The position numbers and the translations under genes were made by a program. Of a DNA stretch of 64,000 nt, positions 610 to 64,000 are shown piece by piece (within the stretch, counting starts at the first letter, position 1; each line of letters opens with the position of its first letter). The stretch spans positions 64,001 to 128,000 of IMG/VR virus record IMGVR_UViG_3300047476_000704. The stretch is one strand, 5' to 3'. A model generated the notes under the pieces. That model was not told the origin of the DNA, searched no databases, and was given only the letters and a program-made list of their open reading frames with translations. Source of the stretch: a virus.

Positions 610-626
610 TGTAACTCCTTTTTATT

Positions 627-16080: not shown

Positions 16081-16569
16081 TTAGTATTCTAATACACAAT
16101 AATCCATTGATAAAGTAACCGTAATATTTACGGGGTCATTTGAACTCCAATCCATTTCACCAAATTCAGCTGCTGAAATGAATGCTCCAATCAATTTCCA
16201 CTCTTCTACTTTATCACCAACCGGTCCTAATGCGTAAATACTAATATCTTTTTTATAGAAATCCGCATAACCATCACGACCTGTAATTGATTCGTGTGAT
16301 GTTCTAATCCATTCCATAACCGCTTGTGCGCCAGATGGAACGATTGGGTCATACAATGTGATTGTTAAATCAGACCAATCAGATTTTCCTTTAATCTTAC
16401 GCTTCACGTTGATGTGGTCTAATACTACAGTTTCACTTGTATATTTTGGTCTATTAGCTGCTTTTACCATAAATGATGGGATACCACCCGCTTCCATTAC
16501 GAATCTACTAGCTAATTTGGGTTCAAAATTTTGATAAAAAACCTTATCATACCCTAATACGTCTGCCAT
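16081..16569 (-). CDS. Tail tube protein (gp19-like)
   Basis: FEPKLASRF...W.DLTITLYDPIVPSGAQAVMEW...YKKD...GPVGDKVEEWKLIGAF; follows sheath; AAGGAG upstream. Confidence 0.92.
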   Translation of the reverse strand: MADVLGYDKVFYQNFEPKLASRFVMEAGGIPSFMVKAANRPKYTSETVVLDHINVKRKIKGKSDWSDLTITLYDPIVPSGAQAVMEWIRTSHESITGRDGYADFYKKDISIYALGPVGDKVEEWKLIGAFISAAEFGEMDWSSNDPVNITVTLSMDYCVLEY

Positions 16570-16595
16570 TTTTTATATTCTCCTTATATCTTTTA

Positions 16596-16604
16596 TATAA
16601 ATAT
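16596..16604 (-). promoter_or_regulatory. ATATTTATA putative late promoter
   Basis: Intergenic, upstream of the tube gene. Confidence 0.65.
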
Positions 16605-16620: not shown

Positions 16621-18903
16621 TTATGCTCCAAAAGTTGCGCCAGTTGGTAAAATATTGAAGTCAATTTGGATAAATTCAGCAGTTTTAGTAGGTTGTAAGA
16701 AAATTGCTCCTTGTAAGATGTTTCTATCAATCACATCCGGTGTGTTATTTGAATCATCCATTACCACTCTAAATGCGTATAAACCTTGTCTTTGTTGGAT
16801 ACCCTCTAAATATGGGTTTACAGTATTTAAGAATCTTCTTCTAGTTTCAGTAGTATTTTGTTCAAACACTAAATAACGAGATGTAGAAGCGATGTATTTC
16901 TTAACAGTGATTAACAATCTTCTTACATTGATTCTATCTAAAGCGGATGGTTTAGATTGTAAAGTCTTTTGTCCGAATGCTACGATACCTTGTCCTGGGA
17001 ATTGAGCGATAGGATTAACTTTTCCTTCGTATAATGTATCTCTATCAGAGTGAGTTAAACGATTTACTACACCAATTGCTCCAGTGATACCACCACGATT
17101 TAAACCGGCTGGTGCGAACCATTCTGCTGCTGAATTATCATTAGCTGCGTAAACTGCTGGCATCAATACTGATGGTGGAACTGATACTAATTTGTTTGTA
17201 TTCAAATCAATTGTCTTAATCCAAGGGTAGTAAGTTGCTGCGTAGTTAGTATCTAATGATTCTGCTACTTCAACTGCTCCAGCGATTGTACCATCTTGTG
17301 CTACTGAATCCATAATATAGAAACAATCAGTACGAGATTCACACAAATCAATACCAGCTTGTGCTACCGATGGGTGTAATGTTTGGATAACACCTGGCAT
17401 AACTACCAAATTAATATCGTATTCGTCTTGATTAGATATTGCATCCAATGCTTTTTGATATGCTACTGAACCACTTTTAGCCGAAGTTGATAAATCAAAT
17501 CCTTGTGAGTTAGTTGCTGTAATAGATGTACCCTTTGTAATTGTTATTGCCGGGCTCATACCATCAAAACCACCTTGTAATGCTATTGCGAATGTTCTTT
17601 TAGCAACGTCTGCTGCCGTAGAACCAGTTAAATCTAAACTAGCACTTACATATCCAGTACCACCGGCATCTAATGCGAAACCAGATGTAGTTGTTGCACT
17701 TGCAGGAATTGGTTTTAAGAATTGAGTGTTATCAGCTGAATATGTACCTTCATAATCAAATCCACTTACATAAGATGCAGTAGTTGCTGATTTTGTTTGG
17801 TAAGAAACATCAACTAATGAACCAGTGTATAAACCTGCCCAAATTGGGTGTGAGTAACCAGCGTTTGCGTAAGGTGCAGCTGTTACTGGAATTGTATCTG
17901 GGTTCGATGGTGTAATGTAGATATAACGAGATTTGTTAGAATAATCACCATATTCGGTAATTTTTCCATTTGCATCAGATGTTACATATCTATCACCAAT
18001 TGCTCTTGCAATATAGTTTGGAGATGTTGGGTCTAAATTTAAGTTAGAGAATGTTTCTAATACATATTTTCTCTTATCAGTATCAGAGTATTTTCTAACT
18101 TGCAATGTAAATGTTGCGTAATCAGTACCAATAACCGAACCAGCAGCTTTAACATCTGAAATTACAATCTTAAATCTTGTGTTTTCAGCGTTACCATCTG
18201 AAATTGTATTTACCTTAAACAAGTTATAACGGCTACCACCAATTAATTGTGATTGGATGTATGGAGTTGAAGCTCCAACCGCATCATCGTTAAAGTTTTG
18301 TGCTGGTAAAATTACAGCCGAAGCAGTATAGTGTGAAGTTCCCAAAATACTTTCAAATGCAGTATATGCATATGCATTTTTAGAACCTAATGCCGATGTA
18401 CCAAATACCTTTGTTACTGCGTATGGGTCTGTTGGTGTAATTGAAAATTGGTTAGAATCTCCAAATTCTCCAATTTGAGAACCACTAATAAACATAACAT
18501 CTTCTCCAGATGGAGTAAATGTAGAACCAGTAAATGATGCAGATGTATTTGAGTTTTCGGTATTGTTTAATGTATAAACTAATTTTTGAAAACCACTACC
18601 AGATGCAATTACACCAATTGGTCCTAATTCTTTATATCCACCCAATCCAGCAACTCTTACGATTGTTACTACACCAGTTTCTCTTAAATAGTTTTGTACT
18701 GCATTTTCAGTATAATAAGTGCTATCAACAACACCAAAAATATCTTCAAATTCAGATTGAGTGTTTACAATTGTAGGTTTGAATGCTGGTCCTTGTTTGA
18801 AAGGTCCGATGAAAGCTCCACCGATTGCACCAACACCCTGTGCTATAAAAGATAAATCATTCTCTCTAGTGAAAACACCAGGTGATACGATTTTTTCAGC
18901 CAT
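16621..18903 (-). CDS. Tail sheath protein (gp18-like)
   Basis: SPGVFTREND, WFAPAGLNRG, ALDRINVRRL, IFLQPTKTAEFI; AAGGAG upstream. Confidence 0.96.
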   Translation of the reverse strand: MAEKIVSPGVFTRENDLSFIAQGVGAIGGAFIGPFKQGPAFKPTIVNTQSEFEDIFGVVDSTYYTENAVQNYLRETGVVTIVRVAGLGGYKELGPIGVIASGSGFQKLVYTLNNTENSNTSASFTGSTFTPSGEDVMFISGSQIGEFGDSNQFSITPTDPYAVTKVFGTSALGSKNAYAYTAFESILGTSHYTASAVILPAQNFNDDAVGASTPYIQSQLIGGSRYNLFKVNTISDGNAENTRFKIVISDVKAAGSVIGTDYATFTLQVRKYSDTDKRKYVLETFSNLNLDPTSPNYIARAIGDRYVTSDANGKITEYGDYSNKSRYIYITPSNPDTIPVTAAPYANAGYSHPIWAGLYTGSLVDVSYQTKSATTASYVSGFDYEGTYSADNTQFLKPIPASATTTSGFALDAGGTGYVSASLDLTGSTAADVAKRTFAIALQGGFDGMSPAITITKGTSITATNSQGFDLSTSAKSGSVAYQKALDAISNQDEYDINLVVMPGVIQTLHPSVAQAGIDLCESRTDCFYIMDSVAQDGTIAGAVEVAESLDTNYAATYYPWIKTIDLNTNKLVSVPPSVLMPAVYAANDNSAAEWFAPAGLNRGGITGAIGVVNRLTHSDRDTLYEGKVNPIAQFPGQGIVAFGQKTLQSKPSALDRINVRRLLITVKKYIASTSRYLVFEQNTTETRRRFLNTVNPYLEGIQQRQGLYAFRVVMDDSNNTPDVIDRNILQGAIFLQPTKTAEFIQIDFNILPTGATFGA

Positions 18904-18940
18904 TTTTAATTTCTCCTTTTAATAATAATTTTTATCTTTA

Positions 18941-18949
18941 TATAAATAT
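18941..18949 (-). promoter_or_regulatory. ATATTTATA putative late promoter
   Basis: Intergenic, upstream of the sheath gene. Confidence 0.65.
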
Positions 18950-23728: not shown

Positions 23729-23756
23729 TATAAATATCTATACATTCTATAAATAT
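23729..23756 (-). promoter_or_regulatory. Two tandem ATATTTATA motifs
   Basis: Copies at 23729-23737 and 23748-23756 upstream of the long fibre gene. Confidence 0.65.
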
Positions 23757-51742: not shown

Positions 51743-51751
51743 TATAAATAT
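51743..51751 (-). promoter_or_regulatory. ATATTTATA putative late promoter
   Basis: After the early-cassette terminator, before the neck gene. Confidence 0.68.
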
Positions 51752-55436: not shown

Positions 55437-55997
55437 TTATTTCTTTTTAATAAATCTACCATTTTCATCTTTTTTAAGATTACGATTTTTTAACCACATT
55501 CTACGCTCTTCGTATTTTGTTTCACCTTCATCACCATACTTATCAACAAACCATTCCAATGAATATCTACCCTTTGCTTTTTCTTTTTGTATTTGTTTGG
55601 TTTCGTTTGAATGAGTTTTACCATACATGCCATTTTTTTCACCTTTGGCAATAATTCTCATTTTTTCAACCCATTCCATATATTCATCCGTATCTCGTCT
55701 ACCTTCCCAATTATCGCCACCAGCTCCTCTGTAAGTATCGTTATACCCACCCTTTACTGAATTATGTGCTAGTATCAATTCTTCTTCCAATTTTTGTGCC
55801 ATAGTTGGTTCTACCTCACAAATAATCTCTTTAATCATATTATCCCAACCATATTTACGAATTGCTTTATATAAAGAATTTTTTTTATTTTTGGTATAAG
55901 CATTACATTTGTGAGAAGACATTCTACAATCAAAATCATTTGTTCTACCAATATACACTTTTCCATTTGGTGAACTTATTTTATATATTACATCCAT
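55437..55997 (-). mobile_element. Free-standing GIY-YIG homing endonuclease with NUMOD3-like motif
   Basis: VIYKI-x7-YIGRT...RMSSH...E; KGEKNGMYGKTHSNETK. Confidence 0.85.
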
Positions 55998-56010: not shown

Positions 56011-56019
56011 TATAAATAT
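56011..56019 (-). promoter_or_regulatory. ATATTTATA putative late promoter of the endonuclease
   Basis: Between the capsid terminator and the endonuclease ATG. Confidence 0.62.
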
Positions 56020-56094: not shown

Positions 56095-57741
56095 TTAGAT
56101 ATTAGCCAAACCTTCAACCAAGATTTTCCCGTAAAATTCTGGTCTCACGAGCTTCTTCGCGTAACGAGTCATAACACCTCTACGTGGAGTAAAGTTATCT
56201 GGGTCGTACACTAATGGAGTTAAAATCAATGGTACATATGGAGCGTAAACCGCACCTGTCTCAAGGAAGTTGTTTCCTTTGTAACCTAACAAGATTTCGT
56301 TAGAAGTCATGTATGGGTTTTTGTAAACAGTGTAGCGATTTGCCAATGAACCTACTTGAGTTACACCAGCTGCAAATTGTTTAGCATCTTTATCAGCGTT
56401 TACAGAGAAAGCTGGGATTGATTCTAAAATAGTACAAACGTCAGGAGAAGCAACGATAAAGTTAGCTCCACCACGCATTGTCAATTGGTGAATCTTGTTA
56501 GATACTTTGTTCAATTTAGTTCCCAAAGTCTGGAACCAAGTGTTTTTAGTGTAAGCACTTGCGTTAGATGAATCAGAATCAATTGCGAATGCTGAACCAT
56601 TCCACTCATTACCAATCTTTGTAGACCAGTATTCAGTAGTCAATGCATTTCCTTTCAATAAATCCAAGATTTCCAAGTCAATCTCTAATGAGATATATTC
56701 AGATAACATAGCAGTCAATTCAGCTTCTGCATCAATTGAGTGGTATGCGTTCAAATCTTGTGCTAATTCAGGAGTCCACACTGCTTTCAACTTACGAGTT
56801 TTAGCAACGATTGCTTCCGATTTCAATTCTAAGTCAACTTGTGGGATGTTCAAGTTAGTACCTGAAGATGGGTTAGAGATTGGGTCTCTATCTTCGAAGT
56901 CACCACGAGAAGTTGCAGTTGGTTGTACAGAGTAAACCAAACCTACAGTTGCAGAAGTTGAACCTGATGCCAATACTGATGAACTTACGATTAACGAAAC
57001 AGTTCCGTTAGAAGAGTAAGTAGTCAATGCTGGGTAGTAAGTGTTGATTGAACCAGAAGTTCCACCTTGTAATGAACCAGATACATAGAATGAACGAACT
57101 GCGTTAGTATCAGCAGATAATGCTGCTACTGAAGCAGATGCTAAAGTAATTTTGTACAAGTTACCAGCAGCCATAGATGCAGATAAAGATGTATCAAAAT
57201 TCAAATCAGACATTGCAGTAACTTTAGCTGCAGTAGCGAAAGATACGATAGCAGATTGGTCATTAACCGAATATGCATAACGACCATCGCCATAAAGACC
57301 GTTTTGAGGAGCGTTAGTTGAACCTAACTTCGCTGCTGATGTTCCACCATACAAAGATGTGCTAGATGCATCACCATATCCTTTTCCAGTTGTACCATAT
57401 TTGAAATCCATGTAGAAAATCAAACCTGATGGTAAGTTCATTGGTTGTACCGAAACAAATTCCTTTGCTGCGATTTCACCGAAGATACGGCGAACCAATG
57501 GTAAAGCTACACCAGACCATTCTTCTGAACCAGCAGAAAAACCTGTCTTTGTAGTCTCATCTAATAATTGTTTTGCTTGGTTTTCCAAGATTACAGCCAT
57601 TCCGTGCTCTTCTGTTGCACCAGCTAAACCTTCCAATAAACCAGTTTTTTCCCACTTGTTTTTCAACCCGCGAGTTTGCTCAAGCATAACCGCAGTTGGG
57701 TTTTTGCCTTCCATAAGCTTGTTTAAATCAAATTGTGCCAT
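56095..57741 (-). CDS. Major capsid protein (T4 gp23-like)
   Basis: KWEKTGLLEGL, LPLVRR, VQPMNLPSGLIF, KTRKLKAVWTPELAQDL, YAPYVPL, GVMTRYAK. Confidence 0.97.
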   Translation of the reverse strand: MAQFDLNKLMEGKNPTAVMLEQTRGLKNKWEKTGLLEGLAGATEEHGMAVILENQAKQLLDETTKTGFSAGSEEWSGVALPLVRRIFGEIAAKEFVSVQPMNLPSGLIFYMDFKYGTTGKGYGDASSTSLYGGTSAAKLGSTNAPQNGLYGDGRYAYSVNDQSAIVSFATAAKVTAMSDLNFDTSLSASMAAGNLYKITLASASVAALSADTNAVRSFYVSGSLQGGTSGSINTYYPALTTYSSNGTVSLIVSSSVLASGSTSATVGLVYSVQPTATSRGDFEDRDPISNPSSGTNLNIPQVDLELKSEAIVAKTRKLKAVWTPELAQDLNAYHSIDAEAELTAMLSEYISLEIDLEILDLLKGNALTTEYWSTKIGNEWNGSAFAIDSDSSNASAYTKNTWFQTLGTKLNKVSNKIHQLTMRGGANFIVASPDVCTILESIPAFSVNADKDAKQFAAGVTQVGSLANRYTVYKNPYMTSNEILLGYKGNNFLETGAVYAPYVPLILTPLVYDPDNFTPRRGVMTRYAKKLVRPEFYGKILVEGLANI

Positions 57742-57761
57742 TTGTTTTTGTTCCTTATTTT

Positions 57762-58895
57762 TTATTTAATTAGTCCTGCCAATTTTTTGAATCTATCAGA
57801 GTAAGCAGAATTTTCGCTGATGATTTGTTTTTTAACACCTGTACTTTTTTGTGGTTTAGAAGCTCCTTCTGTGATTCTTTTTACAGATTCTACTTTCTTA
57901 ACACTTCCACCCATTTTCATAGATTCGGCGATTGTTGAGTAAACCAATTTAACTTCACGAATTGTTCCAGTTCTATCGAATGAATCAATAACTTTAGATT
58001 TTTGTTCGTTAGTTAAGTTGTATCCTCTAAATAATTTGTTAGAATATAAAAGTTTAGCGTTCAACAAGTTAATCTCATTGATTGTAGACTTCAAAGTTTT
58101 GATTACAGAAATTGCTTGTGCTAATTCATTTTTCAATGATTTTGCTTCTGCCACTGCTGCTTTCTCTTCTTCTTCTGCTGCTTCTTCATCTTCTAATTCT
58201 TTGATGATTGCTTCGATGTTTAATTCTTCTTCGCCATCTTCTTCTTCTTCCATTGAATCTTCTTCTTCATCTTCTTCGGAGATTGATGAATCTGAATCGT
58301 CAGCGTTCATGTAAGTATCAACATCATCTGCATCCTCTTCCATTTCTTCTTCCTCTTCTTCTTCCATTTTCTCTGCGCCCAATTCGTCTTCTAATTCACG
58401 AATGATAGCTTCTAAATCTAAATCATCGTCAGATGGTGCATCCATTTCGTCTTCACCTTCTTCCATTTCATCTTCGCCATATTCACCTTCTTCCATTTCC
58501 ATTTCGTCTTCACCTTCTTCCATTTCCTCTTCCTCTTCTTCTGTGATTGATTTAGCGAAATCATAATCTTCAACCTCATCCTCTGGCTTACCAGAAGTTT
58601 TAGTTACGTCTGCTGCACCCAACTCATCTTCATCAGCTGCTGAATCTAATGTTGGTTGTGCACCACCCCCAATGTTAGAAGAACCTAATTCTTCTTCCAT
58701 TTTCTCTTCTTCTTCTTCCTCATGCATTTCATCAGCTTCCATATCTTCAGCTTCTGCACGCAATTTTTGAGAAAGAATGTTCTTCAAACGAGGAGTAAAT
58801 GCTTCCTCTAATTGAAGTTTTGCGTTTGCTAATGCAGTTTCTCTAACAGCTTTAGCATCGGCGATTGCTTCTTTTAACAATTTTGAACTTGCCAT
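57762..58895 (-). CDS. Prohead core scaffolding protein (gp22-like)
   Basis: Highly acidic repeats plus C-terminal coiled coil (EINLLNAKLLYSNKLF...EVKLVY); directly upstream of MCP. Confidence 0.88.
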   Translation of the reverse strand: MASSKLLKEAIADAKAVRETALANAKLQLEEAFTPRLKNILSQKLRAEAEDMEADEMHEEEEEEKMEEELGSSNIGGGAQPTLDSAADEDELGAADVTKTSGKPEDEVEDYDFAKSITEEEEEEMEEGEDEMEMEEGEYGEDEMEEGEDEMDAPSDDDLDLEAIIRELEDELGAEKMEEEEEEEMEEDADDVDTYMNADDSDSSISEEDEEEDSMEEEEDGEEELNIEAIIKELEDEEAAEEEEKAAVAEAKSLKNELAQAISVIKTLKSTINEINLLNAKLLYSNKLFRGYNLTNEQKSKVIDSFDRTGTIREVKLVYSTIAESMKMGGSVKKVESVKRITEGASKPQKSTGVKKQIISENSAYSDRFKKLAGLIK

Positions 58896-59062: not shown

Positions 59063-59305
59063 TTATTTGTATAAACTACGGAATTTTTTTGGAATTTCTT
59101 TTAATTTTTTACCTCTGTAAAGGTCTTTTTGCTGAATTAGTTGTTTTCTTTCAGCTTTTTCCATCATTTCTCTTTTAGTAACCGATGGTTTTGTAAATTG
59201 TTGTCTATCTCTTAATTCTTTAACAACACCAATTGCATCAAACTTTTTCTTTAATTTTTTTAATGCTCCAGCAATATTGCCGTCTTTTACTTCAATGTTA
59301 ATCAT
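59063..59305 (-). CDS. rpsU: Phage-encoded ribosomal protein bS21
   Basis: I.VKDG.I..ALKKLKKKF...GVVKELRDRQQFTKPSVTKR. Confidence 0.92.
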   Translation of the reverse strand: MINIEVKDGNIAGALKKLKKKFDAIGVVKELRDRQQFTKPSVTKREMMEKAERKQLIQQKDLYRGKKLKEIPKKFRSLYK

Positions 59306-59310
59306 AACTT

Positions 59311-59847
59311 TTACTTTTGTTCTACTTTTGTATATCTTTGATTTGTATCGTTTTGGATTCTTTTCTTTGTTGATTTTACTTTATCATAAGATGGAGCACC
59401 ATTGATATATCCACCAGGTAATGATAAACCTACACCAGCTCCACCTGGAAATCCATCTTCCGAAACTACACCCTCCAATCTACCAGTCTTTTTTATTTGG
59501 TCTAATTTAGATAGTGTATCGTTTTTAATTTTAGTATATCTACGAACTTCATTATCGTTTGTAGCTTTTTTTATTTGATTAGTAACCCATTGTAATTGCT
59601 TCATCAATTCTTTCTTCATAGATTCCGCACTTTCTTTAACTACGGATTCAGAGCAACCTATTGCATTATAGAATTTACTATAATCAAATTTGATTCCTTC
59701 ATCTTTGAATTGTCTTACCATATTATCGGCAATAGATTTACGATTTTCTACATCTAATACTTGATTTAGAATATCAATAATTCCGTCTACCATTTCGTAT
59801 TCGTTATTATCTAACTTTTCGTTTAATATAGTTTTTAACTTTATCAT
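59311..59847 (-). CDS. Putative internal head protein (MIKL leader)
   Basis: Starts MIKLKTILNE; internal VVKES and VVSED motifs. Confidence 0.65.
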   Translation of the reverse strand: MIKLKTILNEKLDNNEYEMVDGIIDILNQVLDVENRKSIADNMVRQFKDEGIKFDYSKFYNAIGCSESVVKESAESMKKELMKQLQWVTNQIKKATNDNEVRRYTKIKNDTLSKLDQIKKTGRLEGVVSEDGFPGGAGVGLSLPGGYINGAPSYDKVKSTKKRIQNDTNQRYTKVEQK

Positions 59848-60245
59848 TATCCTATTTTATTTAAATCCTTTAATATAGAATTTACTTCACTATTACTAAA
59901 ATTATGTTCCGATGCTATTTGTGACCTAGTTATATTTTTCCATATGGGATTTCCGTTTACATTTATATCAGATAGTATATCGTTTTTACTTCTACATCCG
60001 TTATAATCGCAATATTTACCATTATACAAAATACAAACGTGAACCATTGCTTTTGTTTCAGGTTCAATTACAGCTACATATTTACCTTTATTTCCTAAAT
60101 ATTTATTTAATGCATCGGCAAATGTATAACACCCACCACTCATATACCAATCTGTCCAATTGGTATCCTTTCTATATTGCTCTAAAACATCATCTAAATC
60201 TGATATAGATTTTACACCCTCTACCAAATCCTTTAACTTTATCAT
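59847..60245 (-). CDS. Putative internal head protein, papain/transglutaminase-like triad
   Basis: Starts MIKLKDLVE; GGC...VHV...CDYNG. Confidence 0.6.
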   Translation of the reverse strand: MIKLKDLVEGVKSISDLDDVLEQYRKDTNWTDWYMSGGCYTFADALNKYLGNKGKYVAVIEPETKAMVHVCILYNGKYCDYNGCRSKNDILSDINVNGNPIWKNITRSQIASEHNFSNSEVNSILKDLNKIG

Positions 60246-60667
60246 TATAGTTTCTTTAATAAACTATCCATATCAATTTCAAATGCGTAACCTGCTCCAC
60301 TATGTCTCTTATCTACAATGACTTTCAATCCTAATTTCTTTTCCAAATGTTGTTTTAATAATTCTAAAAAATCAGCATCTCCACCTTTACCCATTCCCTT
60401 TTTAGATAATGTATATTGAGTAGCGTTTCCACCTAACTTTTGTTTTATTAAATCAATACCATCTACATCTTTCATTGAGCTAGGAACTAAAATAATTTTA
60501 CCATCTTTTGATGTTGGTGTAAATTTTACATTTCCAGACCAATGTGGGAACTCAAAGCCGGTACTTTCTTTTATTTGCGATTTGAATGCAGTATGATATG
60601 GATTAGAATAAACAACTCCTTGTTCAAACTTACCATGTCCTTTGACTAAATCCGTTAATTTTATCAT
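60245..60667 (-). CDS. Putative internal head protein (MIKL leader)
   Basis: Starts MIKLTDLVKG; QIKES downstream. Confidence 0.6.
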   Translation of the reverse strand: MIKLTDLVKGHGKFEQGVVYSNPYHTAFKSQIKESTGFEFPHWSGNVKFTPTSKDGKIILVPSSMKDVDGIDLIKQKLGGNATQYTLSKKGMGKGGDADFLELLKQHLEKKLGLKVIVDKRHSGAGYAFEIDMDSLLKKL

Positions 60668-61176
60668 TAGTTAATATAGCAGTTAAGTTCGTATCCGTTT
60701 TTCATTCCATATACCTGAATGTGTAATTGTTTGTTTGATGGTTTTCCACCTTTGGTTAATTCAACTGAAACTTTAACAGTCTTTCCTTCCGATGGTTTAC
60801 GAGGTCCCATTCCTATCTTTCTAAATGAGTCATCATCATCTACCATATACCCTTTCTTCAAAGCGTATTCTTTTGCAGTTTGTATTGCTTCCGTATATGA
60901 TTTGTGATATACCTTCAAATCGTTTGCTTCGTTTACCGATTCACCTCTCAATTTTCCTAAATGATTGATAGCTTGCTTTTCGTTCTTCTTAAAGTAATCT
61001 TCAACTTCTTTTTTTGTATCAAATGATAATTGACCTTTACCCTTTGTAACATCATCTACCCAAAATGAATCAGAATCTCTATCAAATTCGTAGTATCCTA
61101 CAAGTTTGCCGTTTGATAATACCTTACCATCTTTAGCAACTACACTTTCGTTTAATAAATCGCTTAACTTTATCAT
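60667..61176 (-). CDS. Putative internal head protein (MIKL leader)
   Basis: Start moved to MIKLSDLLNES (ATG at 61176); two domains joined by ESVNE. Confidence 0.62.
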   Translation of the reverse strand: MIKLSDLLNESVVAKDGKVLSNGKLVGYYEFDRDSDSFWVDDVTKGKGQLSFDTKKEVEDYFKKNEKQAINHLGKLRGESVNEANDLKVYHKSYTEAIQTAKEYALKKGYMVDDDDSFRKIGMGPRKPSEGKTVKVSVELTKGGKPSNKQLHIQVYGMKNGYELNCYIN

Positions 61177-61180
61177 CTTA

Positions 61181-61906
61181 TTATTTACTAATCTTAAAAA
61201 ATTTATTAAACTCATCTCGCATTACATCCGCCTGGTCTTGCTTTGTATGGTTTTGTTTTATAATAAGCTCCAAACCTTTTTTCATTTCAGGTACATTATT
61301 ACTATATTTTTGCTTTAACATTCTAAAAATGTTTTTAGCTTGAATACGAGTGTTTGCCCACTCATCATATTCGTTTATGTTTTCATCCGTTTCTTTACCT
61401 GCTCTTAAATCTGCTAAATCATCTGCTCCAATATCACCATCTTTATCAACATCCAATTTGTGTTGATTACCAACTAAATCTTCACTACGAATACCCAATC
61501 TTTGGTTTACTTCTTCTTCACTCAATTCACTAACACCATAGTATCTACCTATAATATGTCCCATATCTTCGTATAGGTTTTCCATTTGTGAATGTAATGA
61601 TTTTGCTTCGTTTGCAATCTTTTCAAATTGAGCAGATAATTTACCCAATTCATTCATATTGCGTTTTACAGTTGCTTCGTCAAAGTGATTACCAGCTTCT
61701 TTATTAGCAAACTCACTAGCTGCATCTGTAATTGCACCCAATGTTTCAGCAATTTGTGCTAAATCATTTTCATTCTTTAACTTTGGTCCAAATGAACCAT
61801 AAGTAGAAATGATTTCTAAAAAGTGTCTTCTTGCTTCGTTGCTTAAAGTTTGTTTAGGTGCCTTTTTATCTTCACCTTCTCCTAATAATTTCTTTAACTT
61901 TATCAT
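61181..61906 (-). CDS. Putative internal head protein (MIKL leader) with EF-hand-like loop
   Basis: Start moved to MIKLKKLLGE (ATG at 61906); DVDKDGDIGADD. Confidence 0.62.
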   Translation of the reverse strand: MIKLKKLLGEGEDKKAPKQTLSNEARRHFLEIISTYGSFGPKLKNENDLAQIAETLGAITDAASEFANKEAGNHFDEATVKRNMNELGKLSAQFEKIANEAKSLHSQMENLYEDMGHIIGRYYGVSELSEEEVNQRLGIRSEDLVGNQHKLDVDKDGDIGADDLADLRAGKETDENINEYDEWANTRIQAKNIFRMLKQKYSNNVPEMKKGLELIIKQNHTKQDQADVMRDEFNKFFKISK

Positions 61907-61907
61907 C

Positions 61908-62132
61908 TTATTTTGCTTCAAATTGTTCTATAAGTTTGATTGCCATATCAATATGCTTTATTGCTTCTTTACTATAAGGTGCAATGTTGTGCTTAACCTC
62001 TTTCAATCTATCTAATGATTTTTCACGAGTCATTGCGTGCATTGCTGCTTCTAACAATTCTCTTCTTTGCTGTTCATCCGATTTGGCTTTAATCTTATTA
62101 GAAGCCATATATTTTGTTATATCAAATGCCAT
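61908..62132 (-). CDS. Small hypothetical protein
   Basis: MAFDITKYM..NKI; follows the protease. Confidence 0.6.
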   Translation of the reverse strand: MAFDITKYMASNKIKAKSDEQQRRELLEAAMHAMTREKSLDRLKEVKHNIAPYSKEAIKHIDMAIKLIEQFEAK

Positions 62133-62139
62133 ATTTTTA

Positions 62140-62724
62140 TTAGTTTAATTCTTCTATTATTTGCATCATTAAATCTTGTGCTTTACACCACTTACCACAC
62201 TCTTCAATTTCTCTTTTAACACTTTCATTCATAGCAGTTGGAGACATAAATGCTCCATGTGTAGATGGGTTAGATACAAAATCCCAACCAATTAGTTCAA
62301 AATCTTCTTGTACCATTACAGTATTCTCTCTCATAGGTTTAACTGAACCCATGCCTCTACTGCTAATACCCAAACGGATATTGTGTTTGAATAATTCTTT
62401 TAAGATGTTACCAGATGGAGTTGAAAGAACTTCTACTGTCCCACATAAGTCTTTACCATCCCACCAAATTTCTTTGATGTTGTGTGATACATTCTTTAAG
62501 TTAATAACAGTTGAATCTGGATGGTCTAACTCACCCAATGCTCTACGCTCTTGTATTAGTGTTTCGTATTTCTTTGCTTCCCTTTGTAATATATTATAAG
62601 GATAGATACGATGATTTTGGTTAGGAGCGTCCGCGCGTTGCAATACACCTTTAACCAAAAATTTGCCATTTGCATCTTCCTGTATAGTTCCTTCAAAAAG
62701 GTTATGTTCTATTAATAATCCCAT
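62140..62724 (-). CDS. Prohead core protein protease (T4 gp21-like)
   Basis: NQNHRIYP, ALGELDHP, VSHNI, LGISSRGMGS, WDFVSNPSTHGA. Confidence 0.95.
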   Translation of the reverse strand: MGLLIEHNLFEGTIQEDANGKFLVKGVLQRADAPNQNHRIYPYNILQREAKKYETLIQERRALGELDHPDSTVINLKNVSHNIKEIWWDGKDLCGTVEVLSTPSGNILKELFKHNIRLGISSRGMGSVKPMRENTVMVQEDFELIGWDFVSNPSTHGAFMSPTAMNESVKREIEECGKWCKAQDLMMQIIEELN

Positions 62725-63605: not shown

Positions 63606-64000
63606 TTATTTTCCCTCACTTTTAGCTTTCCAAGCTGCATCTACTTTATTAAAAAATGCTTTCTTTTCATCATCACTCATAGATGGAATAGATTTACCAG
63701 CTTTATCCAATACTTTTTGGAAAAACTTTTGGTATTCTGCTTCCTCTTGCATTACTTCTCTTACGATTGATTTTAATGCTTCTCTCTTTAATGATTTTTG
63801 CTTACCCATAGTTTGTGGTAACCCATTTGCTACATTTTCAATATCTTCGCTGATTTTATATTTCATTCCCAAATGCCCTTTACCCATATCTTTTACATTA
63901 AACTTTTGGTGAAATGTAGATTGTTGTGCTGCTTTTGGTGTAATATCTAAAATCCAATCATTACCATCTTTTGATAAATAGTATGCATTTTTATCACCAG
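63606..64000 (-). CDS. Hypothetical protein (5' end off window)
   Basis: The frame of the 63606..63887 ORF stays open to the window edge (GDKNAYYLSKDGNDW...); contains LKSIVREVMQEE. Confidence 0.7.
   Translation of the reverse strand, partial: GDKNAYYLSKDGNDWILDITPKAAQQSTFHQKFNVKDMGKGHLGMKYKISEDIENVANGLPQTMGKQKSLKREALKSIVREVMQEEAEYQKFFQKVLDKAGKSIPSMSDDEKKAFFNKVDAAWKAKSEGK

Follow-up and report, generated by a model that had tools for sequence, protein, structure and literature searches.

A Bacteroidota-type phage bS21 with arginine in place of the anti-Shine-Dalgarno-clamping tyrosine, and its possible link to Shine-Dalgarno-led tail genes

Why would a phage encode a ribosomal protein whose N-terminal half looks like that of Bacteroidota and whose C-terminal half does not? 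The question is raised by an rpsU gene, encoding ribosomal protein bS21, in a 64,000-nucleotide stretch of DNA (the window) that forms bases 64001-128000 of the 194,856-bp IMG/VR virus record IMGVR_UViG_3300047476_000704, a lake phage genome rated complete by CheckV. In the Flavobacterium johnsoniae ribosome (7JIL), Tyr54 of bS21 stacks on A1534 where the 16S rRNA tail turns toward bS18 and bS6, and Ile55 adds a van der Waals contact; a signature Tyr54 and a less basic C-terminus are the Bacteroidetes-specific features of the protein (Jha et al. 2021, PMC7797042). This lock holds the anti-Shine-Dalgarno (anti-SD) sequence. The function of phage bS21 has been open since its discovery, and the sole detailed study of Bacteroidota phages concluded that the lock is kept. 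The phage described here belongs to a clade that breaks this rule in both features known to matter, and the change is paired with conserved Shine-Dalgarno (SD) sites on two very abundant virion genes, those for the tail sheath and the tail tube.

The identity of the gene, given as bS21 in a preliminary description of the window, is borne out by two profiles above their curated cut-offs: PF01165 (Ribosomal_S21; 54.5 bits, cut-off 27) and TIGR00030 (47.6 bits, cut-off 28.95). The best PDB chains found with phmmer are 9i5v_9 (46 bits) and 7jil_z from F. johnsoniae (44 bits), both Bacteroidota-type, and the remaining bS21 chains score 23.5 bits or less. The gene and its two unusual parts are as follows.

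59063..59305, minus strand: phage rpsU (bS21, 80 amino acids, Bacteroidota-type N-terminal core), from PF01165, TIGR00030 and structure-chain matches
59147..59149, minus strand: codon AGA for Arg53, which aligns with Tyr54, the anti-SD-clamping residue of F. johnsoniae bS21, from ungapped HMMER and MAFFT alignments
59066..59140, minus strand: basic C-terminal tail, residues 56-80, reaching about 16 amino acids beyond bacterial Bacteroidota bS21 and carrying an IPKK[F/Y] motif (F75 at 59081-59083), from alignment and charge count

Over residues 1-55, identity to bacterial Bacteroidota bS21 is 60-65% (alignment scores 154-156). The same residues score 133-162 against sister phages and 83-106 against phage bS21 that is not of the Bacteroidota type. 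Because these 55 residues are so host-like, the protein appears built to fit Bacteroidota 30S subunits. It is in the following few residues that host and phage part. HMMER pairs A51-E52-R53-K54 of the phage with A52-A53-Y54-I55 of 7jil_z, gap-free after the invariant K-P-S, and MAFFT alignment with bacterial Bacteroidota bS21 puts Arg53 in the same column as Tyr54. The columns that MAFFT finds invariant include A14, L15, K16, K19, K21, F37, K39 and S41 (the ALK..K.K and F.KPS motifs). The preliminary description had already matched Tyr54 to Arg53; since both programs give that column, it was right.

Is the arginine a stray mutation? The bacterial comparison set consisted of the 80 species representatives with the most similar bS21, nearly all titled Bacteroidota (Flavobacteriales, Bacteroidales and Marinilabiliales) and 50-67% identical. 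At position 54 these have tyrosine in 78, phenylalanine in one and histidine in one, and a basic residue in none. Among phages, near-identical copies of the protein (88-99% identity) occur on many viral contigs, and a sister group (L012, L013, L019, P0007, P0010 and P0037) has bS21 of 78-79 amino acids that is 50-60% identical to that of the window. Arginine is kept at this column in the sister lineages L012, L013, L019, P0007 and P0010. These alignments support a change from Tyr54 to arginine that is phage-specific and conserved, and not a stray mutation. Further afield, the aligned residue of Lactococcus lactis bS21 is a lysine inside a basic run and the Staphylococcus aureus alignment is gapped there, so the Firmicute comparison supports only "basic, not aromatic".

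The second change concerns the tail. Counted from residue 48, it is 31-33 amino acids long with a net charge of +7 to +8 throughout what will be called the Arg/extension clade (33 amino acids and +8 in the window), and the sister lineages keep the extension with the motif IP[K/T]K[F/Y]. In the 80 bacterial proteins the same part averages 15 amino acids with a charge of -0.4, and in phage proteins of the Tyr type the charge is +1.7. The basic C-terminal extension noted earlier is therefore real, as judged by both length and charge. In addition, Ile55 of the host protein is replaced by lysine (K54) in the phage protein. The clade reverses both of the Bacteroidetes-specific C-terminal features recognized by Jha et al. 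(2021, PMC7797042), Tyr54 and the weakly basic tail, together with Ile55.

An AlphaFold2 model (mean predicted local distance difference test score 79) has helices at residues 11-25, 27-35 and 40-62, a break and a final helix at 73-79, with Arg53 in the middle of helix 40-62. Foldseek comparison of this model with the PDB gave only weak bS21 matches (E-value 0.25 or worse) and no residue-level information. Tyr63 was considered as a displaced clamp, a case that the preliminary description had named as fatal to its proposal. The alignments place Arg53 at the clamp position; Tyr63 follows 10 residues later, at the end of predicted helix 40-62, and is not conserved in the sister lineages.

Which phage genes could profit if the anti-SD were free? 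Four SD sites had been described, before the genes for sheath, tube, major capsid protein (MCP) and recA, and all four are present in the leader sequences.

18913..18920, minus strand: SD AAAAGGAG, with a 9-nucleotide spacer to the start of the tail sheath gene (coding sequence 16621-18903)
16580..16585, minus strand: SD AAGGAG, with a 10-nucleotide spacer to the start of the tail tube gene (coding sequence 16081-16569)
57752..57756, minus strand: weak SD-like AAGGA, with a 10-nucleotide spacer to the MCP gene (coding sequence 56095-57741)
615..621, minus strand: SD AAAGGAG, with a 5-nucleotide spacer to the gene for a UvsX/RecA-like recombinase (1-609 in the window; the coding sequence runs past the window start)

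The sheath, tube, UvsX-like and TerL genes were identified by PHROGs, and the Gp23-type capsid and the prohead protease by Pfam. Core SDs were defined as AGGAG, GGAGG or GAGGT at positions -20 to -5, and their counts were compared with shuffled leaders. They precede eight of the phage's 234 genes, against 2.6 in the shuffles (P 0.002), and matches of at least 7 nucleotides to the SD consensus precede four genes, against 0.65 (P 0.005). The eight include sheath, tube, UvsX, TerL (GGGAGG), a glycosyltransferase-like gene and a gene for a 115-amino-acid protein of no known family. Overall the genome is SD-poor, a few of its genes have SDs that look genuine, and the excess is modest. The rpsU gene itself has no SD upstream, and its leader is A/T-rich just before the start, as had been described. 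The gene for the 115-amino-acid protein lies outside the window (genome 147430-147777; L086:431-778) and combines a promoter-like element with AAAGGAG and a 9-nucleotide A-rich spacer, as at sheath. Its product gave no match to PHROG or Pfam and no credible Atlas match (poor structure model only); it could be an abundant late protein.

Relatives were compared as whole or large contigs, with one gene caller and the same core-SD counts for all. The figures are numbers of core-SD genes, followed by the mean of the shuffles.

G000 (this phage), Arg/extension bS21: 8 vs 2.6
G001 (237 kb), Arg/extension bS21: 9 vs 2.1
G003 (44-kb tail fragment), Arg/extension bS21: 4 vs 0.6
G002 (head-module fragment), Arg/extension bS21: 0
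G005 (complete), Lys-type bS21, gene outside the head module: 3 vs 2.7
G004, short Arg-type bS21: 1 vs 1.3
G006, Tyr-type bS21: 1 vs 2.3
G008, Tyr-type bS21: 4 vs 2.6
G007, Tyr-type bS21: 10 vs 2.6 (own bS21 gene included)
G009, Trp-type bS21: 1 vs 1.2
G010 (92% complete), no bS21, head module intact: 2 vs 1.3

In each of the three Arg/extension genomes with tail genes (G000, G001 and G003), core SDs exceed the shuffles. Before sheath, AAGGAG is kept in G000, G001, G003, L138 and L140, in leaders that have otherwise diverged. Before tube, the site reads AAGGAG in G000, AAAGGAG in G003 and AAAGGA in G001. Across the clade the spacers at both genes are 6-10 nucleotides. Outside it, no SD was found at sheath, tube or MCP in G005, G007, G010 or Flavobacterium phage immuto. 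Two of these lack bS21: G010, which belongs to the same sheath clade as the phage of the window and has a full head module without the gene, and immuto. The comparison with bS21-lacking relatives, which had been suggested as a check, thus comes out as predicted for the sheath and tube SDs, which are missing there; loss of the tyrosine as such does not predict SDs in G004 and G005. Counts in 20-kb neighbourhoods of 80 viral bS21 genes did not discriminate, since the distance from bS21 to sheath and tube is about 40 kb.

Two of the relatives have bS21 genes worth describing on their own account. The Tyr-type gene of G007 (contig of L072; 118532-118726) has its own AGGAG 8 nucleotides upstream, which resembles the SD autoregulation of host rpsU. 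The Lys-type gene of G005 (contig of L034; 45250-45447, KAIKTEKY) is separated by about 50 kb from the head module, which occupies 93-97 kb. Given this distance, it is probably an independent acquisition.

How might an altered bS21 and SD-led tail genes be connected? In F. johnsoniae, SD-led reporters rise 3-fold with bS21 Y54A and 4-5-fold with a C-terminal deletion, and SD-less reporters are largely unchanged in vivo; the 3- to 5-fold gain of SD-led reporters is seen both in vivo and in vitro, and Bacteroidia ribosomes without bS21 also gain SD recognition (McNutt et al. 2023, PMC9976891). A switch would be expected because these two lesions raise SD-led output. In the phage, bS21 would be synthesised late in infection together with the head genes and would occupy the bS21 site of host ribosomes, by exchange or on subunits that lack the protein. 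Its C-terminal half, without the host lock (Tyr54 to Arg, Ile55 to Lys, long basic tail), would then weaken sequestration of the anti-SD, leaving ribosomes in a state that resembles the Y54A and C-terminal-deletion mutants. Phage mRNAs with a well-spaced AAGGAG, above all those of sheath and tube, would then initiate better. We favour this reading tentatively, giving it rather less than an even chance; the host, the incorporation into ribosomes, the release of the anti-SD and the effect on translation are all things that we infer.

Several observations do not fit easily, and the first group concerns where SDs are found. The preliminary description had placed SDs on the most abundant virion genes. 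This holds for sheath and tube and fails for MCP, where the weak AAGGA is shared with G003/L019 only and is absent from the other two of three sister lineages (G001/L012 and G002/L013). SD matches of 5-6 nucleotides are no commoner in leaders than in windows inside coding sequence, and for this reason the MCP motif alone is within chance. The UvsX and TerL sites are unique to G000; UvsX orthologues of G001, G010, G011 and G012 have none. Only about 3% of the genes of this phage have a core SD. Nor does the type of bS21 predict SD use: the Tyr-less Lys type (G005) and short Arg type (G004) show no excess, and the Tyr-type G007 has as many SD-led genes as this phage. Because the Arg/extension phages are one clade, their shared SDs amount to about one evolutionary observation.

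A second group concerns the origin of the sites. In a tree of 81 sheath proteins, G007 and the pair of G005 and immuto fall outside the main clade and have no SD at sheath. All basal lineages of the main clade have AGGAG there. These lineages are SD-rich genomes (G014 has a core SD before 22 of 156 genes) with bS21 of a non-Bacteroidota type. A well-supported clade of 57 members is divided: the Arg/extension clade and most of a 29-member sister clade retain the SD, and an 18-member clade, to which the bS21-less G010 belongs, and a 4-member clade have lost it. In the 29-member clade, whose bS21 type was read through G030 and G031, the same slot holds another bS21. This protein is 101-113 amino acids long, has a very basic tail and an arginine in the position matching Arg53, is about 38% identical to that of the window over the core and is not Bacteroidota-like. 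The genomes of this clade are SD-rich too (core SDs precede 15 of 104 genes in G030, those for capsid, sheath and tube among them). Since genomes like G030 use SDs broadly, their hosts probably read SDs anyway. Because the basal, SD-rich lineages all carry a sheath SD, the sheath and tube SDs are most simply inherited. On the tree, then, the sheath SD looks ancestral rather than evolved anew with the loss of the tyrosine.

What remains to be explained is retention. An SD-poor lineage (about 3% of genes with a core SD, against 14% in the SD-using relatives G014 and G030) whose bS21 has a host-like core has retained a C-terminal half unlike that of the host, as well as the SDs before sheath and tube. 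In the SD-poor lineage from which bS21 has disappeared, both of these sites are gone as well. Selective retention of this kind is a notable pattern. Could it mean that the exchange of bS21 is a switch of specificity, from host ribosomes blind to SDs to ribosomes that read them late in infection? Initiation on the sheath and tube mRNAs, the only ones with conserved SDs, would then be privileged; lineages that lost bS21 have lost the two SDs too. This stronger form of the proposal is possible, although we regard it as doubtful. The arginine, its conservation in the clade and the sheath and tube SDs speak for the switch as it was first put forward; the MCP, UvsX and TerL sites, the other Tyr-less types and the ancestral sheath SD do not.

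The third group concerns the protein. Arginine often stacks on adenine. Arg53 might therefore still stack on A1534, and the published mutant is Y54A, not Y54R. Another aromatic residue follows 10-12 positions past the arginine (Tyr63 here; phenylalanine in the sister lineages, two positions later) and could in principle compensate structurally for the lost Tyr54. Moreover, bS18 and bS6, which also hold the 16S tail, are not supplied by the phage: genes for these two pocket proteins were looked for in its genome and none was found, so it does not replace them.

Perhaps, then, this is an ordinary phage bS21 that substitutes for or supplements the host protein late in infection and has no connection with SDs. 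Arg53 would do the job of Tyr54, or the position would be immaterial, and the SDs would be harmless relics of SD-using ancestors. The ancestral-looking sheath and tube SDs of the family fit this explanation, as do the Tyr-less phages without an SD excess, the Tyr-type phage with one and the 5-6-nucleotide matches, which are no commoner in leaders than in coding sequence. So does a tally of 184 bS21 relatives in which arginine is the commonest non-aromatic residue at the position 54 column (17 of 184). However, relics should decay, yet five diverged leaders still have AAGGAG at the right spacing. Most other genes have lost their SDs, and SD-poor sister lineages without bS21 have lost those at sheath and tube. 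The aromatic residue in all 80 of the nearest bacterial proteins argues that arginine is not equivalent in the host setting, and it is the entire C-terminal signature that is altered, beyond one residue. An ordinary role is thus possible, if somewhat unlikely.

The genes around bS21 bear on when it would be made. On the minus strand the order is prohead protease, five small genes, bS21, scaffold and capsid, with TerL about 9 kb upstream of bS21.

62140..62724, minus strand: prohead core protease, upstream member of the head-gene run with bS21 (PF03420, 93 bits)
57762..58895, minus strand: acidic scaffold-like protein between bS21 and capsid, from the open reading frame, with orthologues in the same place in relatives
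18941..18949, minus strand: late-promoter-like element ATATTTATA (core of ATATATTTATATA) upstream of the sheath SD, with a second copy at 16596-16604 upstream of the tube SD

The product of 57762..58895 has no Pfam match and is a putative scaffold by its position and composition. Eight-nucleotide words of ATATATTTATATA are 12-15-fold enriched in gene leaders, and the late-promoter-like element lies 11-76 nucleotides upstream of about 40 phage genes. There are 15 further minus-strand sites in the window (for example 56011-56019, 51743-51751 and 23729-23756). None lies on the minus strand from 56020 to the window end at 64000, so the protease-to-capsid run is presumably co-transcribed. A scan for sigma-70 promoters and terminators around bS21 did no better than on shuffled sequence. 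The block TATATTTATAT is invariant in the alignment of sheath leaders, and only the promoter-like block and the SD persist in the leaders of sheath and tube. The element recurs in most sheath relatives, and a near-identical GATATTTATAAT precedes both sheath and tube in Flavobacterium phage immuto.

Three features of this region deserve separate mention. The five small genes at 59311-61921 of the window (minus strand) share MIKL(K/T/S)(D/K/T)(L/I)(L/V)..(E/G) at or near their start and then diverge, which looks like a common capsid-targeting leader of internal proteins. An open reading frame just downstream of capsid (55437-55997, minus strand, 186 amino acids) has a GIY-YIG-like start (..KVYIGRT..) and its own promoter-like element, and could encode a homing endonuclease. 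Finally, a comparison of L218 (G018), L219 (G014), L457 (G031), L458 (G030) and the window (59063-61921) shows that one slot, between a YEDMGH..GRYY protein and the scaffold gene, holds very different types of bS21 (Arg/extension, long Arg and Val; 38-60% identity). This suggests in-place replacement or very fast gene evolution.

The promoter-like element also bears on a different kind of retuning, one that does not involve SDs. Through its long basic tail and diverged N-terminal helix the protein could touch the 30S head or the mRNA 5' of the start region, and so favour late mRNAs with short A/T-rich leaders. Most of the roughly 40 genes with the element have no SD, and its distance of 11-76 nucleotides from their starts means that many late leaders are probably short. 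Attraction of mRNA by the N-terminal helix has been suggested (Chen et al. 2022, PMC9723584), and the IPKK[F/Y] tail has a terminal aromatic residue like the RLY/KLY tails that reach h37/A1167 beside the SD helix in E. coli (Watson et al. 2020, PMC7550191). The likeness to those tails is one of composition only, however, and upstream of sheath and tube there is no conserved motif besides the promoter-like element and the SD. Retention of SDs specifically in bS21-bearing lineages would also be left unexplained. All in all this is an improbable account.

Who is the host? The whole record has 33% G+C and about 234 genes, nearly all on the minus strand. Of the coding-strand copies of the Bacteroidota -7 promoter motif TAnnTTTG, 20% lie within the 8% of the DNA that is intergenic (about 2.5-fold enriched), and the nearest cultured relative by capsid and sheath is Flavobacterium phage vB_FspM_immuto. 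Together with the bS21 core and the SD-poor gene starts, these point to a host that is probably a member of the Bacteroidota. The intergenic copies of the motif are concentrated outside the window, at 40-50 kb (11 of 37) and 170-180 kb (8 of 37) of the genome, and these clusters may mark early or tRNA transcription units read by the host polymerase.

The last alternative, that the host reads SDs natively and the phage mirrors a host bS21 with arginine and a basic tail so that no switch is needed, draws on an indirectly assigned host, on the tendency of phage bS21 to resemble that of the host (Watson et al. 2020, PMC7550191; Chen et al. 2022, PMC9723584) and on Chlorobia bS21 without Tyr54 (McNutt et al. 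2023, PMC9976891), and is very unlikely in view of the absence of an Arg or Lys variant from the 80 nearest bacterial species representatives, the low share of core-SD genes relative to G014 and G030, the intergenic enrichment of TAnnTTTG and the Flavobacterium host of the nearest cultured relative.

Returning to release of the anti-SD as the preferred reading, retuning of the ribosome by a virus is plausible, with the effect on translation itself conjectured from the F. johnsoniae mutants. The idea is directly testable, since bS21 genetics, reporters, in vitro translation and cryo-electron microscopy already exist for F. johnsoniae. Should it prove correct, the phage would provide a clear example of viral control over the mRNA choice of the ribosome through replacement of a single ribosomal protein. 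If false, the generalisation that position 54 of phage bS21 is always aromatic still fails.

How does this phage compare with systems already described? The F. johnsoniae Y54A mutant likewise lacks the Tyr54 side chain in an otherwise Bacteroidota-type bS21. The F. johnsoniae mutants are laboratory alleles (alanine, truncation), whereas the phage has arginine, Lys55 (alignment numbering) and an added tail. Host rpsU has an extended SD for autoregulation (McNutt et al. 2023, PMC9976891), unlike phage rpsU, which has none. The bS21 of the E. coli type also has a basic C-terminal extension past the helical core, with a near-terminal aromatic residue; this extension (RLY/KLY) follows the SD helix and reaches a docking site on the 30S head (Watson et al. 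2020, PMC7550191). The two tails are alike in composition and length only, with no detectable sequence homology, and the core of the phage protein is Bacteroidota-like. Closer to hand, the long bS21 of the sister clade (G030, G031, L062-L065 and L080) shares the head-module slot, the arginine, the very basic long tail and SD-led sheath, tube and capsid genes, and differs in its diverged, non-Bacteroidota-like core and its broadly SD-using genomes. Pelagibacter phage HTVC008M is another T4-like aquatic myovirus with its own bS21, and incorporation of that protein into E. coli ribosomes has been reported (Mizuno et al. 2019, as cited in PMC9976891). Its bS21 is distant in sequence (about 50% identity over 40 residues, E-value 9e-4), and its host is of another phylum with no anti-SD sequestration to overcome.

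The nearest known parallel is provided by the freshwater Bacteroidetes myoviruses of Chen et al. (2022, PMC9723584). Like this phage, they carry a Bacteroidota-like bS21 on the reverse strand, in a head module with protease, scaffold, capsid and terminase, so that the position beside capsid genes was, as the preliminary description recognized, already published. The role proposed for these proteins is late substitution into host ribosomes favouring phage mRNAs. Position 54 is tyrosine in 54 of 61 phage proteins and another aromatic residue in the other 7, and anti-SD blocking like that of the host was inferred (Chen et al. 2022, PMC9723584). The present clade differs from those phages in its arginine at position 54, its long basic tail and its sheath and tube SDs. 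McNutt et al. (2023, PMC9976891) speculate on exchange of phage bS21 and not on Tyr-less variants, and a full-text literature search returned neither a paper on a Tyr-less Bacteroidota-type phage bS21 nor one that connects such a protein with SD-led late genes. Phage bS21 beside head genes and the idea of late substitution are thus known; what appears new is an Arg/extension clade with conserved SDs before sheath and tube.

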